From a virus: DNA of 64,000 nucleotides. The notes under the pieces were generated by a model that had not been told where the DNA came from, ran no database searches, and saw only the letters and a list, made by a program, of their open reading frames with translations. The stretch covers positions 25,722-89,721 of the IMG/VR virus record IMGVR_UViG_3300050194_000017; one strand, written 5' to 3'. A program made the position numbers and the translations under genes. Positions 12,709-21,771 of this stretch are shown here, in pieces (the stretch's first letter is position 1; each line of letters opens with the position of its first letter).

Positions 12709-12758
12709 AGGATATCTTTCAGCAACCATTAAACTCTTTTACAGTTAATGATATCCTG
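12709..12758 (+). ncRNA. Scaffold RNA copy 1 (AGGAT..TTCAGCAA..ATCCTG) carrying a Lys-like anticodon stem-loop (CTTTTAC)
   Basis: AGGATATC/GATATCCT outer stem; inner stem with 7-nt loop at 12736-12742. Confidence 0.7.
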
Positions 12759-12779
12759 TTAAAATGTTGGTGATAGTGT

Positions 12780-12853
12780 CAGAGCGTAGGCTAGTTGGTC
12801 AAGTCACTCGCTTTGGAAGCGAGAGATCGCAGGTTCGAGTCCTGCCGCTCTGA
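12780..12853 (+). tRNA. tRNA-Pro(TGG), no CCA, acceptor extended by an 11-bp flanking stem
   Basis: CTCGC-TTTGGAA-GCGAG anticodon arm; flanks GGTGATAGTGT/ACACTATCGCC pair. Confidence 0.88.
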
Positions 12854-12862
12854 CACTATCGC

Positions 12863-13000
12863 CCATTATCAAAGAGTTCTTTGTCTAAAATGACGGTCGA
12901 GTCAGCCGATTAATACATTTCTCACAAATTGATCATGTGACGAGTGTTAGGAAATGATAGATAGAGGATAGACTCTTTATCGGGAACTCTTTGATAATGG
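12863..13000 (+). ncRNA. Structured element bounded by a 17-bp perfect inverted repeat
   Basis: CCATTATCAAAGAGTTC (12863-12879) / GAACTCTTTGATAATGG (12984-13000) with internal stems. Confidence 0.5.
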
Positions 13001-13006
13001 AATTTA

Positions 13007-13106
13007 TCGTCGAGAATAGAACGCGAAGTGGGCAGCGACTACCCGGGAGGGAGGTATAGTAAAGTTCGAATCTTTACCTATTCAGCATAGACGTATGCAT
13101 CGACGA
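13007..13106 (+). ncRNA. Degenerate tRNA-like element
   Basis: GAATAG/CTATTC acceptor-like stem, GTAAAG-TTCGAAT-CTTTAC T-arm, outer TCGTCGA/TCGACGA stem; no canonical anticodon loop or CCA. Confidence 0.45.
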
Positions 13107-13117
13107 ATTAGTTTTGT

Positions 13118-13194
13118 TGCGGGATAGAGCAGTCTGGTAGCTCGTCAGCCTCATAAGCTGAAGGTCGTGGGTTCGAATCCCACTCCCGCTACCA
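13118..13194 (+). tRNA. tRNA-Met(CAT), initiator-like
   Basis: fMet-like body, 1:72 mismatch, CTCATAA loop, ACCA. Confidence 0.9.
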
Positions 13195-13196
13195 TC

Positions 13197-13272
13197 GGGG
13201 GTGTAGCTCAGTTGGTAGAGCAGGTGCTTTGCAAGCATCAGGTCGCAGGTTCAATTCCTGTCACCTCCACCA
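13197..13272 (+). tRNA. tRNA-Ala(TGC)
   Basis: TTTGCAA loop, G3:U70, ACCA. Confidence 0.92.
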
Positions 13273-13308
13273 TTTTATTGTTATGAAGATAAATCCTTAG
13301 GATATATC

Positions 13309-13551
13309 ATGAACATCGAATTTGTTTCAATTACGTCAAATATGAATTCTAATCAATTGATAAATGATAGGATTCATTCTTTGTATTTGCATTGTCAAGA
13401 ACACATGCAACGTCAGATTGATGGAGGCATTGCCGGTAAGCCAATCTCAGAATTGTACTCCGCTAGGCTCGAATTATGTCAGTATTCTAACTGGGTGATT
13501 GATGCAGAGGAAGACGACATGGATGAAGATGATCTTGACATCGATTTTTAG
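13309..13551 (+). CDS. Hypothetical protein with acidic C-terminus
   Basis: RBS AGGA; ends in TAG. Confidence 0.65.
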   Translation: MNIEFVSITSNMNSNQLINDRIHSLYLHCQEHMQRQIDGGIAGKPISELYSARLELCQYSNWVIDAEEDDMDEDDLDIDF

Positions 13552-13552
13552 A

Positions 13553-19020: not shown

Positions 19021-19206
19021 TATGTTTAGAGTTGATAGGGACGGCAATCCCGTTGACAGTTGATACACGCAAAATCAGAATTCGTTGCCGCTGAATATTT
19101 GATATTTGCTACTTTGTCATCCAGTGGTTAGGATGGTCCCGCTGACAGGGAAGAACCTTGGTTCGAATCCAAGCAAAGTCATTAGGTGTTATCAACTCTA
19201 AACATA
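19021..19206 (+). ncRNA. 17-bp perfect inverted repeat enclosing a degenerate tRNA
   Basis: TATGTTTAGAGTTGATA / TATCAACTCTAAACATA; inner D-arm ATCC-AGTGGTT-AGGAT and T-arm CTTGG-TTCGAAT-CCAAG; non-canonical loop GCTGACA; no CCA. Confidence 0.55.
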
Positions 19207-19266
19207 TGATGCAACTCGGCGAGCAGCCCCTGAAAAGGGCATCTGGTTCGATTCCAGAATTATATG
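19204..19266 (+). tRNA. Minimal, truncated tRNA-Phe(GAA)-like element
   Basis: ATATGAT/ATTATAT acceptor, GCCC-CTGAAAA-GGGC anticodon arm, TCTGG-TTCGATT-CCAGA T-arm; tiny D-arm, no variable loop, no CCA. Confidence 0.45.
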
Positions 19267-19292
19267 TTTCAAATTATGACTTCGTGTCATAT

Positions 19293-19346
19293 AGGATGAT
19301 TTCAGCAACCTACTCTACAACCGTTAATTGTAAAAAGGTCATCCTG
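19293..19346 (+). ncRNA. Scaffold RNA copy 4 carrying an Asn-like anticodon stem-loop (TACAA-CCGTTAA-TTGTA)
   Basis: AGGATGATTTCAGCAACCTACTCT...AAAAAGGTCATCCTG. Confidence 0.75.
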
Positions 19347-19431
19347 TTAAGCTAAAAATGCTTTACTTTTCTTTGAACTTTGTTATAATCAGATTTGGAA
19401 TTTTCCAAATTAACCTTTGAAAGAGAATATT

Positions 19432-20139
19432 ATGATCGATTTTTCGGCTCTGAGCCTTGCTTCTATTGATTTCGCTGCTGTTGCCAAGATTATTGGCATC
19501 GATATCATGCTAGGTGGTGATAATGCTGTTGTCATTGCACTAGCATGTTCTGCTTTGCCTGTTGCTATGCGAAACAAAGGCATGTTCTTTGGCACTGCTG
19601 GTGCTGTAGTTATGCGAGGACTATTTCTTGCTATTGCAGGTCTTGTTCTTGGTATTCCTTTTGTCAAAGTCATCGCCGGTGCTTGGTTGTTCTGGATTGG
19701 CTATAGTCTACTGATTGCAAATGATGGAGATGAACACAACATCACTCCAGCAGACAGTTTGCTTGGTGCAATCAAAACGATTATCATTGCAGATATCATG
19801 ATGAGCGTTGATAATGTGATGGCAGTTGCATCTGCTGCAGAATCTACTGGTGCTCATAGCACATTGTATGCAGTTGCTGGTATTTTGTTCAGTGTTCCTA
19901 TCATTGTTCTTGGTGCTCAAGTTATCATGAAATTGATGGATCGATTCCCTGTCATTGTCTGGGGCGGAGCTGGTCTGCTGGGCTGGGTTGGTGCTGAGAT
20001 GATTATTTCTGATCCCAATATGCACAACATCGTAAGTGATGATCAACATCTGATTTTCAAGATTCTTGGTTTTGTTGTTGTGATTATTGCAGCTCTTGCT
20101 CAGAAAAAGTTCACCACAAAGCACGAAACTGCTGTATAA
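19432..20139 (+). CDS. TerC/YjbE-family integral membrane protein
   Basis: IDIMLGGDNAVVIALAC, AIKTIIIADIMMSVDNVMAVA; multiple transmembrane helices. Confidence 0.88.
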   Translation: MIDFSALSLASIDFAAVAKIIGIDIMLGGDNAVVIALACSALPVAMRNKGMFFGTAGAVVMRGLFLAIAGLVLGIPFVKVIAGAWLFWIGYSLLIANDGDEHNITPADSLLGAIKTIIIADIMMSVDNVMAVASAAESTGAHSTLYAVAGILFSVPIIVLGAQVIMKLMDRFPVIVWGGAGLLGWVGAEMIISDPNMHNIVSDDQHLIFKILGFVVVIIAALAQKKFTTKHETAV

Positions 20140-20163
20140 TTTGATTTTAACCGAAAAGGAAAT

Positions 20164-20805
20164 ATGATGACTAATCTTGTTTTGAATCTGACTAAGCCCA
20201 ATGAAACTCCTGCTAAGTTGCAGTTGAATCTGAAGAAAGGTGAATCTTTTGTTGTTAAGCTATCCTGGGATGGCTCGACTGACTTGGATCTACATGCTAT
20301 CTATTGTGTGAATACTGGTGCCGGAGCGAAGGTCAGTGCTCTCGAAGACATCTTGTCCACATATAATCTGAAGCGAACAATCCAAGGCCAAGAAGTTGGT
20401 ACTTTGCCGAAGAATCCAGATGGTTCGTTCGAAATTCGTAATGGTGCTTTGAAGCATTCTGCTGATGCTCTTGATGGTACTGCCGTTGGTGATGACGAAT
20501 GGATTCGAATCGATCCATCGAAGCTGGTCGCATCAATTGGTTCGAATATCGAAATTCCTCTGATCGCCATGATCCACCCGCAATCTGCTGGTTTGAAGTT
20601 TGCTAATGTACAGAATGCGAAGGTCACTATCTTGAATGCAGATAACGCAGTTTTGATGACAGCAACTCTTTCTTCGATGTTCGGTGAATTTGTTGGTGTT
20701 CAAATGGGATCCATTATCATCGAATCTGATGGGAAGTCTACATTTGCTCAAGTTGGTGTCGGGTTCAATCTCGATTTCAATGGCGTTATCGCTAACTTTG
20801 CATAA
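20164..20805 (+). CDS. TerD/TerZ-family stress protein
   Basis: LNLTKP...VKLSWD...DLDLHA...HSADALDG...DDEWIRID pattern. Confidence 0.7.
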   Translation: MMTNLVLNLTKPNETPAKLQLNLKKGESFVVKLSWDGSTDLDLHAIYCVNTGAGAKVSALEDILSTYNLKRTIQGQEVGTLPKNPDGSFEIRNGALKHSADALDGTAVGDDEWIRIDPSKLVASIGSNIEIPLIAMIHPQSAGLKFANVQNAKVTILNADNAVLMTATLSSMFGEFVGVQMGSIIIESDGKSTFAQVGVGFNLDFNGVIANFA

Positions 20806-20814
20806 GGAATAATC

Positions 20815-21567
20815 ATGGCTCTGACACTTAATCTCCAAAAATCCGAACAAACCTTGAAGCTGTGCCTTCAAAAGAAGGGTATTGCTACTCCACCTCCTGT
20901 TGACTTTGCTGTTCTTCTGGATGTATCTGGTTCATTTGAAGATGAACATGCAAGCGGTATCACAAATGATCTGATTACTCGTCTTGTTCCATGGGGCATG
21001 ACTTTTGATCCAGATCGAAAGCTTGATGTAATTACATTCAGTGATGGACAAGGACATGTCGAAAATGTTGGTTCCATCACCGAAGATAACTATCCTGGTT
21101 TTGTCAAGAAGTATGTAATCAACAAGGTTCGTGGCTGGTGCGGTGGTACAGACTACTCGTATGCTATCGAAGAAGCACTTCGTGTATTTGGTTGGCTATC
21201 GAGTGATTCTATCACAGAAAAGGCATCTGGATTCTTTGGTTCTCTGTTCGGTAAGAAGACTCCAGCAAAGGTAGAAGCACAACGACTTGCTGTTGCTTTC
21301 ATTATCACAGATGGTCAGAACTATGACCAAACTCGTACTGAACAAATCTTCCATGATTCAGAACTGCGTGGTGACAAAGTCTACTTCATGTTCATTGGTG
21401 TATCGAACAATCCAACAGAATTCCGTTTTGTTGATCAAATGGCCGATATGTTTTCGAATGTTGGTATTGTGAAGGTTCCGAACATTCGTAAATTTGTCGA
21501 GCAAACTGATGAACAATTGAATGAACAGTTTATCACCGATGAATTTGTGAATTGGTTGAAGAATTGA
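20815..21567 (+). CDS. vWA-domain protein (TerF-associated type)
   Basis: MIDAS motif LLDVSGS, GGTDYSYAIEEAL, FIITDG. Confidence 0.8.
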   Translation: MALTLNLQKSEQTLKLCLQKKGIATPPPVDFAVLLDVSGSFEDEHASGITNDLITRLVPWGMTFDPDRKLDVITFSDGQGHVENVGSITEDNYPGFVKKYVINKVRGWCGGTDYSYAIEEALRVFGWLSSDSITEKASGFFGSLFGKKTPAKVEAQRLAVAFIITDGQNYDQTRTEQIFHDSELRGDKVYFMFIGVSNNPTEFRFVDQMADMFSNVGIVKVPNIRKFVEQTDEQLNEQFITDEFVNWLKN

Positions 21568-21634
21568 ACTTGACAGAATGATTGATACTTGTTATAATTG
21601 ATACATGACAAAGATTAATAATTGATTGGTATAA

Positions 21635-21709
21635 CCCGATGGAGCACTACGGAAGTGCACCCTGCTCATAACGGGGAGGAAATTGGCTCGACACCAATCA
21701 TCGGGACCA
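21635..21709 (+). tRNA. tRNA(CAT), elongator Met or Ile2
   Basis: CCCTG-CTCATAA-CGGGG anticodon arm, ACCA; own promoter TTGACA-17-TATAAT at 21570-21598. Confidence 0.82.
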
Positions 21710-21717
21710 TAAAATTT

Positions 21718-21771
21718 AGGATGATTTCAGCAACCTACTCTTACATTGATAAAGTAAAAAAAGGTCATCCT
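21718..21771 (+). ncRNA. Scaffold RNA copy 5 carrying an Ile-like anticodon loop (TTGATAA)
   Basis: Identical to copy 4 outside the inner hairpin; the loop equals that of the phage tRNA-Ile. Confidence 0.75.

Follow-up and report, generated by a model that had tools for sequence, protein, structure and literature searches.

Phage elements with a common frame and exchangeable tRNA-like modules: a candidate Y RNA-like family linked to a protein with a predicted Ro60 fold

What is encoded by five short elements that share one frame and lie within the tRNA array of a phage? The elements were examined in a window of 64,000 nucleotides (the whole stretch of DNA analysed; positions 25,722 to 89,721 of IMG/VR record IMGVR_UViG_3300050194_000017), which is part of a 97-kb phage record with a completeness of 44% by CheckV. 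Genes for the gp43 polymerase, the gp44/62 clamp loader and RegA were found, indicating a T4-like phage, and its tRNA array comprises at least 17 genes. We propose that the elements are probably genes for small stable RNAs that partner, in the manner of Y RNAs, a phage protein for which a Ro60 fold is predicted.

The original prediction, made from the DNA letters, had described five elements with a common frame and differing inserts. All five were recovered where it had placed them, all on the plus strand, together with a sixth copy elsewhere in the record. Each element is listed from the first base of its stem up to and including the invariant G, and bit scores refer to a covariance model built from relatives.

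12709-12758, plus strand: element 1, stem 12709-12715/12751-12757, extendable to 8 bp; 44.1 bits
12720-12725, plus strand: motif CAGCAA of element 1, whose invariant G is at 12758
12736-12742, plus strand: inner hairpin loop CUUUUAC of element 1, 7 nt, Lys-UUU-like
15942-16086, plus strand: element 2, the common frame with UUGCAGCAA around a circularly permuted tRNA-like body; 33.5 bits
18156-18212, plus strand: element 3, canonical frame; 67.7 bits
19293-19346, plus strand: element 4, canonical frame, inner 5-bp stem 19316-19320/19328-19332; 52.7 bits
19321-19327, plus strand: loop CCGUUAA of element 4, Asn-GUU-like, but with C at loop position 2
21718-21772, plus strand: element 5, 9 nt past tRNA-Met; 57.1 bits
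21746-21752, plus strand: loop UUGAUAA of element 5, Ile-GAU-like, on an inner stem of 4 bp plus an A.A mismatch
G000:C1:16698-16819, minus strand: sixth copy, in the same record upstream of the window, with a second permuted tRNA-like body

The frame of the window copies consists of a 7-bp stem, AGGAU(AU or GA) and its complement, with UU(U/G)CAGCAA after the 5' strand, a variable interior, an A-rich run, the 3' strand and a G. The six copies of the record scored 67.7, 57.1, 52.7, 44.1, 35.6 and 33.5 bits (E 5e-16 to 3e-6). Elements 4 and 5 are identical at every frame base and differ in the inner hairpin alone, as had been claimed, and the loop of element 5 is indeed the anticodon loop of the phage tRNA-Ile. 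Element 2 holds, in order, the anticodon-stem 3' strand, the variable region, the T arm and the acceptor strand with ACCA, and then a spacer, the acceptor 5' strand, the D arm and the anticodon-stem 5' strand. This is the circularly permuted tRNA-like arrangement that had been suspected there, and its layout is like that of the bacterial RNA YrlA. tRNA-Thr begins 13 nt downstream of element 2, and tRNA-Pro 22 nt downstream of element 1. The earlier claim of four 7-nt anticodon-like loops stood for element 1 and needed amendment for the others. The A/U hairpin of element 3 is best drawn with 5 bp and a 6-nt loop, reaches the 7-nt loop AUUUGAA only on a 4-bp stem that includes a U.G pair, and is the least anticodon-like among the five window copies. 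Element 4 has C instead of U at loop position 2, a loop found again in two unrelated contigs, and element 5 has a stem of 4 bp closed by the A.A mismatch.

The extent of the family was assessed by scanning the viral collection with an exact 14-base and then a 17-base pattern and filtering the matches for the closing stem; the family counts given here are lower bounds, taken among the matches listed. At least 276 distinct framed copies were obtained in at least 105 viral contigs, and fetched stretches carried as many as ten copies each. A covariance model built from 37 short copies gave 92 matches at E<1e-3 in 29 loci; it located 9 copies in one complete genome of 235 kb, 7 in another of 161 kb and 0 in two unrelated large records. 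The consensus comprises a 7-bp stem AGGAUnn/nnAUCCU, an unpaired UUN-CNGCAA, an A-rich 3' connector and an invariant 3' G.

The stem was paired in 99.7% of cells of the 92-sequence alignment, and both sides changed in 6 of 7 stem pairs (148 cells), a level reached by 0 of 500 shuffles. Because this alignment is fitted to the model and the first set was selected for its stem, the independent signs are the invariant flanking G and the compensated variants of the otherwise nearly fixed AGGAU among matches found by the model only, such as AGAAU/AUUCU, AGGAA/UUCCU, AGGCU/AGCCU and GGGAU/AUCCC. G.U pairs are tolerated in the stem. Covariation of CNGCAA with the 3' connector and pairing of CAGCA with the 3' tail were both looked for and neither was consistent; since tail pairing is also sterically unlikely, the motif was taken as unpaired. 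The sequence requirements of a K-turn or a T-loop are unmet by the motif, and these identities were rejected.

Elements lay at a median of 10 nt from the nearest tRNA gene, and their strand was that of the tRNA for each of the 269 elements whose locus had one. This strict orientation bears on the reading of the elements as DNA-level units, that is, a miniature mobile element, a recombination site or a homing-endonuclease target. Inverted terminal repeats, many copies and variable interiors are what such units would have, and HNH endonuclease genes are present in some arrays. Besides the orientation, the tolerance of G.U pairs, a conserved motif that is asymmetric and confined to one strand, and cargos of RNA-type tRNA geometry all speak for RNA, and no target-site duplications were seen. 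We regard a DNA-level origin as most improbable.

The elements are a feature of phages. Among 120 pattern matches listed from bacterial genomes, framed elements were present in three short contigs of metagenome-assembled genomes only (L176, L199 and L164), which are probably mis-binned phage DNA; the other bacterial matches had no closing stem, and their number was about that expected by chance for the 17-base pattern. Bacterial chromosomes are thus essentially without these elements. L176, an 8.1-kb contig assigned to Marinifilum, holds four framed elements, and L199, a 4.2-kb contig assigned to Chlamydiae, holds two, in both cases with tRNA-like cargos. Separately, at least 10 Nostoc records match the 17-base pattern TTTAGGATNNTTTCAGCAA, 0 of them with a closing stem (among them L140, L144, L145, L147, L148, L157, L167, L191, L201 and L206); this is above chance for one genus, so a conserved Nostoc sequence probably contains the pattern.

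Among cultured phages, Yersinia phage fHe-Yen9-04 (Eneladusvirus) carries four clear copies, located at 306120-306244, 308282-308343, 309151-309213 and 309228-309299, none of them annotated and one with a C-U-GUU-A-A loop. The covariance model found no copy in T4, Stenotrophomonas phage IME-SM1 or Vibrio phage RYC, and one weak match only (E 0.07) in Xanthomonas phage XacN1; a nucleotide search for nearby cultured phages returned tRNA matches only. In Rfam 15, no fitting family was found at gathering scores or at permissive E-values, and other tRNA-mimic motifs were likewise without a match. The skipping-rope motif, which had been named as a near relative, gave no Rfam match even at E up to 10 and is dropped. 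A literature search found no description of the RNA family, which is apparently undescribed, in agreement with the earlier suspicion, and absent from Rfam 15.

The interior of the elements, here called the cargo, falls into two size groups, 164 of 20-55 nt and 112 of 60-217 nt. A 7-nt loop tops the longest hairpin in 79 of the 164 short cargos (shuffled mean 13.8). Anticodon-type hairpins, here those with 4 bp or more of stem and a 7-nt loop that has U in position 2 and a purine in position 6, were found in 92 of 164, compared with 11.7±3.1 (maximum 22) in dinucleotide shuffles; enrichment of this loop form had been suggested as a check on the original prediction. Among the 95 cases with a 7-nt loop on the longest stem, the stem is of 5 bp in 77, and the loop has C at position 1 in 72%, U at 2 in 82%, A at 6 in 83% and A at 7 in 78%. 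A 5-bp stem with a C-U-NNN-A-A loop is the signature of a tRNA anticodon arm. The commonest triplets are UGU (Thr, 18), GUU (Asn, 15) and UUU (Lys, 10), followed by GGA, UGA, UCU, CAU, GAU and UAU; triplets ending in U make up 66 of 95, and U-A-A-U at tRNA positions 36-39 occurs in 47 of 95 loops.

The long cargos are mostly tRNA mimics, some of them circularly permuted like YrlA. One class is a permuted body with T arm, closed acceptor stem and D arm; a second is a full permuted tRNA that keeps the anticodon arm, with all four arms in some; a third has a hairpin, an anticodon arm and a T arm in normal order, with the closing stem in place of the acceptor stem; a fourth consists of non-tRNA modules, such as a recurrent pseudoknot-like unit. 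The T arm precedes the D arm in about 20 of 112 long cargos, as in element 2 and the sixth copy. Given these classes across the family, the picture of one scaffold with exchangeable tRNA-derived cassettes, as first drawn from five copies, is correct.

Two cargos outside anticodon geometry recur. The pseudoknot-like cargo GCUAAC...GUCUAGCGAC, in which two pairings, GCUA with UAGC and GUC with GAC, can occur together, was seen at L126:5765-5832, L044:7689-7757, L026:3018-3085, L124:2853-2924 and L020:3020-3086. A non-anticodon cargo with stem UUCAC/GUGAA and an 8-9-nt loop ending in GGCU is conserved across contigs (L126:4415-4484, L127:8566-8637 and L020:2866-2932).

The cargos also invite the reading that the elements are working, unusual tRNAs, the short forms being armless mini-tRNAs and the long forms permuted genes whose transcripts are cut and rejoined for use in translation. 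The 7-bp stem is like an acceptor stem, the anticodon arms are canonical, UAG-G-A and the encoded ACCA are kept in element 2, and some long cargos have all four arms. Against this, one stem sequence serves every anticodon, so that acceptor identity is lacking; the short forms have neither D nor T arm, which bacterial EF-Tu and ribosomes need; extra nucleotides, including CNGCAA, stand at every junction; and short loops close the inner acceptor stems of the permuted forms. Neither ARAGORN nor the Rfam tRNA model called the short forms, and ARAGORN and the Rfam model RF00005 called none of the five window elements as a tRNA. We know of no bacterial maturation pathway for permuted tRNAs, and consider a role in decoding very improbable.

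A protein partner was sought by comparing the genes of this genome, two complete element-bearing genomes and fHe-Yen9-04, with T4 and IME-SM1 as contrasts. Few genes were common to the four element-bearing genomes yet missing from T4 and IME-SM1, and the outstanding one encodes a protein of 478-515 residues with the Pfam domains DUF2828 and DUF7788. Of the fetched viral loci, 113 had elements and 106 had none (1.08 vs 0.93 Mb); the protein was encoded in 52 of the former and in 1 of the latter. For nearly all of these protein genes, an element ends 15-90 nt upstream of the start codon on the same strand; in the own genome of the window phage, the sixth element, one small gene and the DUF2828/DUF7788 gene follow one another within 310 nt.

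L415:2873-4390, minus strand: DUF2828/DUF7788 gene of the phage's own genome, outside the window
L361:3132-4592, plus strand: DUF2828/DUF7788 gene of another locus
L361:13139-13504, plus strand: DUF3307 gene, with a homologue near window position 49929

Across whole records, RNA and protein were both present in this record (G000), G001, G004, G005 and fHe-Yen9-04 and both absent from G002, G003, XacN1, T4, RYC and IME-SM1, so that all 11 of 11 were concordant. Among the neighbours of the Ro-like gene, no second protein was as constant as the RNA element. A DUF3307 protein of 121 residues is also common to all four element-bearing genomes and missing from T4 and IME-SM1.

The structure of the DUF2828/DUF7788 protein was predicted with AlphaFold from an alignment of 130 relatives, giving a model with a predicted local distance difference test score (pLDDT) of 94 and a predicted template-modelling score of 0.92; prediction from the single sequence gave a pLDDT of 39. 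In a comparison of the model with the PDB, the top 11 matches were Ro60, Rsr or phage Ro60 over the full length (about 460 residues; E 2e-8 to 5e-6, template-modelling score 0.48-0.63), followed by isolated vWA domains at E>0.01. The top 4 matches among Swiss-Prot models were all Ro60, and a sequence profile search ranked Ro60 first, weakly (E 0.04). [quoted passage not shown] The partner is thus predicted to have the fold that characterises Ro60, a ring of helical repeats with a C-terminal vWA domain bearing a MIDAS. It is a divergent DUF2828/DUF7788 protein and not a member of Pfam TROVE; the analogy to Y RNAs and the request for a Ro60 gene made in the original prediction are borne out by this linked protein of the predicted fold, with TROVE itself absent. 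The scaffold is very probably a protein-binding handle.

At E<=0.001, clustering at 50% identity gave 6,123 representatives of the DUF2828/DUF7788 family. Viral proteins make up most of its closest kin, and AlphaFold DB also contains eukaryotic members, including the plant T31B5-30 type. A literature search found almost no literature on the family and no paper on DUF2828 function; an earlier link of DUF2828 to Ro60 in print is possible.

The position of one copy usually right upstream of the Ro-like gene, and the tRNA-like spacing of elements within arrays, could also mean that they are punctuation for tRNA-transcript processing, stability hairpins or cis-regulatory leaders that control the Ro-like gene, with no function in trans; the 7-bp stem with its unpaired purine does resemble an acceptor stem with a discriminator base. 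Such a role needs neither a conserved unpaired CNGCAA nor cargos in the form of anticodon arms or whole-tRNA mimics. Most copies are distant from the Ro-like gene, as many as 10 being present in a fetched locus and 9 in a single complete genome, and the elements are missing in T4 and in other tRNA-rich phages checked (XacN1 and IME-SM1). A purely local role appears improbable.

Partnership with a Ro-like protein was further considered by comparison with known Y RNAs. The genes of bacterial and phage Y RNAs lie next to that of Ro60, and such RNAs can act as tRNA mimics; Ro60 binds the end stem, chiefly its 5' strand, and the remainder recruits enzymes such as polynucleotide phosphorylase (PNPase), a tRNA mimic being the recruiting module of bacterial YrlA (PMC4201824, PMC12135203). 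The phage family shares with YrlA and other bacterial Y RNAs an end-paired stem, which is their protein handle and presumably also that of the phage RNAs; a variable effector module that may take the form of a tRNA mimic, with a T arm, a D arm and an acceptor stem that is closed; a same-strand position next to the gene of a ring protein with a vWA domain; and several copies per genome. On the YrlA model (Rfam RF02553), long-cargo copies could be aligned from end to end at 27-37 bits, below its gathering score of 69; the best match reached 36.7 bits (L059:2233-2349) and another 33.9, and element 2 gave no match to this model at E up to 5. A tRNA-like module on the end stem, as in YrlA, is carried by a subset of the family only (element 2, the sixth copy and about 20 of 112 long cargos), whereas most members carry the anticodon arm only, a feature that YrlA lacks. 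In addition, and unlike YrlA, the phage RNAs are dispersed over the tRNA arrays, with as many as about ten copies in one phage. The motif GNCGAAN0-1G near the 5' end of YrlA is the presumed contact with Rsr (PMC4201824); GNCGAA was found nowhere in alignments A1 and A2, which have the handle AGGAUnn-UUN-CNGCAA instead. The YrlA partner is a Pfam TROVE protein encoded on the same strand within about 4 kb; no TROVE gene was found in G000, G001 or G005, and an analogous linkage to DUF2828/DUF7788 is seen in its place. The family is therefore unlike YrlA by sequence-based membership tests and Y-RNA-like in layout and linkage.

A closer precedent in a phage is Thermus phage phiLo, which encodes a Ro60-fold protein with the Y-like RNAs Yrl1 and Yrl2 just upstream, as here (PMC12135203). 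The phiLo particle has been proposed to subvert host RNA enzymes and so escape defence (PMC12135203), and its structures (PDB 9L5Y and 9KOP) are among the top fold matches to the DUF2828/DUF7788 model. Unlike the system described here, phiLo has a true TROVE protein and two RNAs with a CGAA bulge and without tRNA or anticodon mimicry, and its Ro60 shares about 15% sequence identity with the DUF2828/DUF7788 protein.

The short elements matched one Rfam family only, the Class I RNAs of Dictyostelium (RF01414; PMC7919456), end to end at 29.4, 28.8, 24.3 and 22.9 bits (gathering score 41.5); alignments were obtained for L104:4528-4582 (minus strand), window 18157-18212 and window 12710-12758. Both are about 50-65 nt long, with a short G-starting stem joining the ends, a variable middle, an A-rich 3' connector, a UG 3' tail and many copies per genome. 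Directly after the 5' strand, Class I RNAs have the unpaired motif CCUUACAGCAA, to which UUUCAGCAA or CUUACAGCAA corresponds in the phage; the invariant Class I positions U3, C6, C9, A10 and A11 are all kept in phage nnUUNCNGCAA, and some copies read exactly CUUACAGCAA. Class I RNAs are eukaryotic genes with their own DUSE promoter element, reported as confined to dictyostelids, whereas the phage copies lie in bacteriophage tRNA arrays; the known binder of Class I RNAs is a protein with an RNA recognition motif, and an anticodon-like module is not described there (PMC7919456). Since the scores are below threshold, we record the likeness as unexplained, whether by descent, a shared type of binding protein or chance. 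A bolder possibility is that Class I RNAs are eukaryotic counterparts of the phage family and that DUF2828/DUF7788 is a second Ro-like lineage with its own Y-like RNAs.

Small RNAs from phage tRNA clusters are not new in themselves. T4 encodes the stable RNAs species 1 and 2 (rnaC and rnaD), which are small, of unknown function, located in the tRNA cluster and processed with the tRNAs. The elements would likewise give small stable RNAs from within a tRNA cluster of the T4 type. In T4 we found no match to the model and no DUF7788 protein, and the rnaC/rnaD region is without such a frame.

From these comparisons, the following course of events may be proposed. The RNAs would be transcribed within the phage tRNA arrays and probably released by tRNA-processing enzymes, as short RNAs of about 50-65 nt and long RNAs of 90-230 nt. 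The constant handle would consist of the ends paired in the 7-bp stem, the unpaired UUN-CNGCAA, the A-rich stretch and the invariant G, and would be bound by the DUF2828/DUF7788 Ro-like ring protein as the Y RNA stem is by Ro60. The variable module, which appears to be copied from a tRNA in part or in full (as a bare anticodon arm, as an anticodon arm plus T arm, or as a permuted body with closed acceptor stem), may engage tRNA-recognising proteins, above all those for the anticodon arms of Thr(UGU), Asn(GUU) and Lys(UUU). The resulting particle could act on tRNA-cutting defence nucleases, by sequestering or marking them, or it could deliver the Ro-like protein to enzymes of tRNA processing or repair.

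A decoy or sensor role against tRNA-cutting nucleases is plausible, in view of the full tRNA-repair set of this phage, the identity of the three commonest cargos with the targets of AriB, and the U-A-A-U found in about half of the loops. AriB of the PARIS system targets Lys-UUU, Thr-UGU and Asn-GUU, with a common U-A-A-U at positions 36-39 (PMC12409363). An RNA-based counter-measure from a phage tRNA array is known in T5, whose tRNA-Lys, tRNA-Thr and tRNA-Asn evade PARIS (PMC11464382, PMC12409363). These have the same three anticodon identities as the dominant short cargos; they are full decoding tRNAs that replace cut host tRNAs, whereas the phage elements cannot decode and would bind or compete. 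Tentatively, and with clearly less confidence than in the partnership itself, we suggest that an exchangeable panel of baits on a Ro60-like ring might capture, neutralise or report tRNA-cutting nucleases such as PARIS AriB.

The repair set of this phage comprises Pnkp, Hen1, RNA ligase, Thg1, Pth2 and a kinase-phosphoesterase pair. The following genes were located in the window.

9106-9516, plus strand: polynucleotide-kinase-like P-loop gene, within the tRNA array
9518-10090, plus strand: phosphoesterase gene (phrog_547), within the tRNA array
37664-38950, plus strand: Hen1 gene of the tRNA-repair set, matched by its N-terminal domain
44808-47174, plus strand: bacterial-type Pnkp gene for RNA repair, with kinase, phosphatase and ligase domains
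59212-60195, plus strand: RNA ligase gene
61778-62632, plus strand: Thg1-like gene

The phosphoesterase was also found in 9 further element-bearing loci. So rich a repair set fits a serious rival as well, in which the particle serves surveillance or repair: the RNA would tether the Ro-like protein to an exonuclease or to the phage ligase, Pnkp or Hen1, and the tRNA-like module would pick damaged tRNAs for decay or mending, the anticodon arms being address labels and not bait. Ro60 is held to PNPase by Y RNAs, and host PNPase is bound by phiLo Ro60 together with its Yrl RNAs (PMC4201824, PMC12135203). The RNA ligase gene g174 of fHe-Yen9-04 is followed two genes on by the Ro-like gene g176, and an RNA ligase with a PHA02142 OB domain is common to G001, G005 and fHe-Yen9-04 and not found in T4 and IME-SM1. 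It is not obvious, however, by what means a bare anticodon arm could pick out damaged tRNAs of its own identity, and the repair genes are less tightly linked to the Ro-like gene than the RNA element is. PNKP_ligase was not found in the five large records G001-G005, which argues only weakly against a repair particle, the positive control having been silent; Pnkp was set aside as a universal partner on the same search, with the same reservation. We consider a repair particle unlikely, if far from negligible.

Several observations weigh against a Y-RNA-like partnership and against the bait reading built on it. The link between RNA and protein is genomic only. The handle is without the GNCGAA/CGAA of known bacterial and phage Y RNAs, and Pfam TROVE (PF05731) had no match in G000 or in the complete genomes G001 and G005, in a search that matched the control genomes; binding, if real, would therefore have to rely on another code of recognition. 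The elements of fHe-Yen9-04 (306-309 kb) are distant from its protein gene (about 102 kb), and upstream of g176 no clear element was found, the region having a promoter and a weak inverted repeat of 6 bp in which the motif is lacking. The stem statistics come in part from copies selected for the closing stem or aligned to the model. The hairpins of the window copies are A/U-rich and thermodynamically weak, with weak whole-element folding z-scores of -1.5 to -3.0, and so would not prove anticodon mimicry alone; it is the family-wide statistics that do. The excess of U-ending anticodons may be due in part to A/T-rich genomes. Thr, Asn and Lys types occur all together in 0 of 42 loci with at least three elements (within the fetched stretch). 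Non-anticodon cargo types are common: about 40% of short cargos fall outside anticodon-arm geometry, some having 8-9-nt loops or a pseudoknot-like module.

Some observations stand apart from the elements. In fHe-Yen9-04 (locus L416, NC_042116 100148-103380), a promoter and a 235-nt leader precede g176 (YP_009623786), which is named 'RNA-binding protein' in GenBank. In the window, an intact tRNA with anticodon CUA, which reads amber and is labelled tRNA-Pyl by ARAGORN, lies at 14043-14119 (69.3 bits with the Rfam tRNA model), and a similar CUA tRNA was seen at L104:2827-2902. The 104-nt stretch at 8979-9082 scored 62 bits with the Rfam tRNA model without an ARAGORN call and may be a tRNA with a long insert. 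A weak tmRNA match runs end to end over 13553-13662 (29.3 bits; gathering score 47), with a T arm and ACCA at its end. Further structured non-coding stretches lie at 12860-13115, 14125-14265 and 18810-19290, and a cluster of TerC, TerD and vWA-TerF-like genes occupies 19417-21567, between elements 4 and 5 within the tRNA region.

Taken as a Y RNA/Ro60-type system with a newly recognised likely partner, for which a function in tRNA conflict is plausible from sequence comparison, the elements would add to phage biology a widespread structured RNA family that is unannotated in published genomes such as that of fHe-Yen9-04. Since this cultured phage of Enterobacterales has both the RNA and the protein, the proposal can be tested at the bench. 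A review of November 2026 lists as answers to tRNA-cutting systems mutated or over-expressed phage tRNAs only (PMC13728456); if the bait idea is true, the system would be a new kind of counter-defence and the first RNA-protein one against tRNA-targeting immunity. If the partnership is true, a fold and a likely RNA partner could be assigned to DUF2828/DUF7788, a very large family whose function is unknown, and the Ro60/Y RNA principle would extend to anticodon-arm effector modules, pointing at readers or cutters of anticodon loops.

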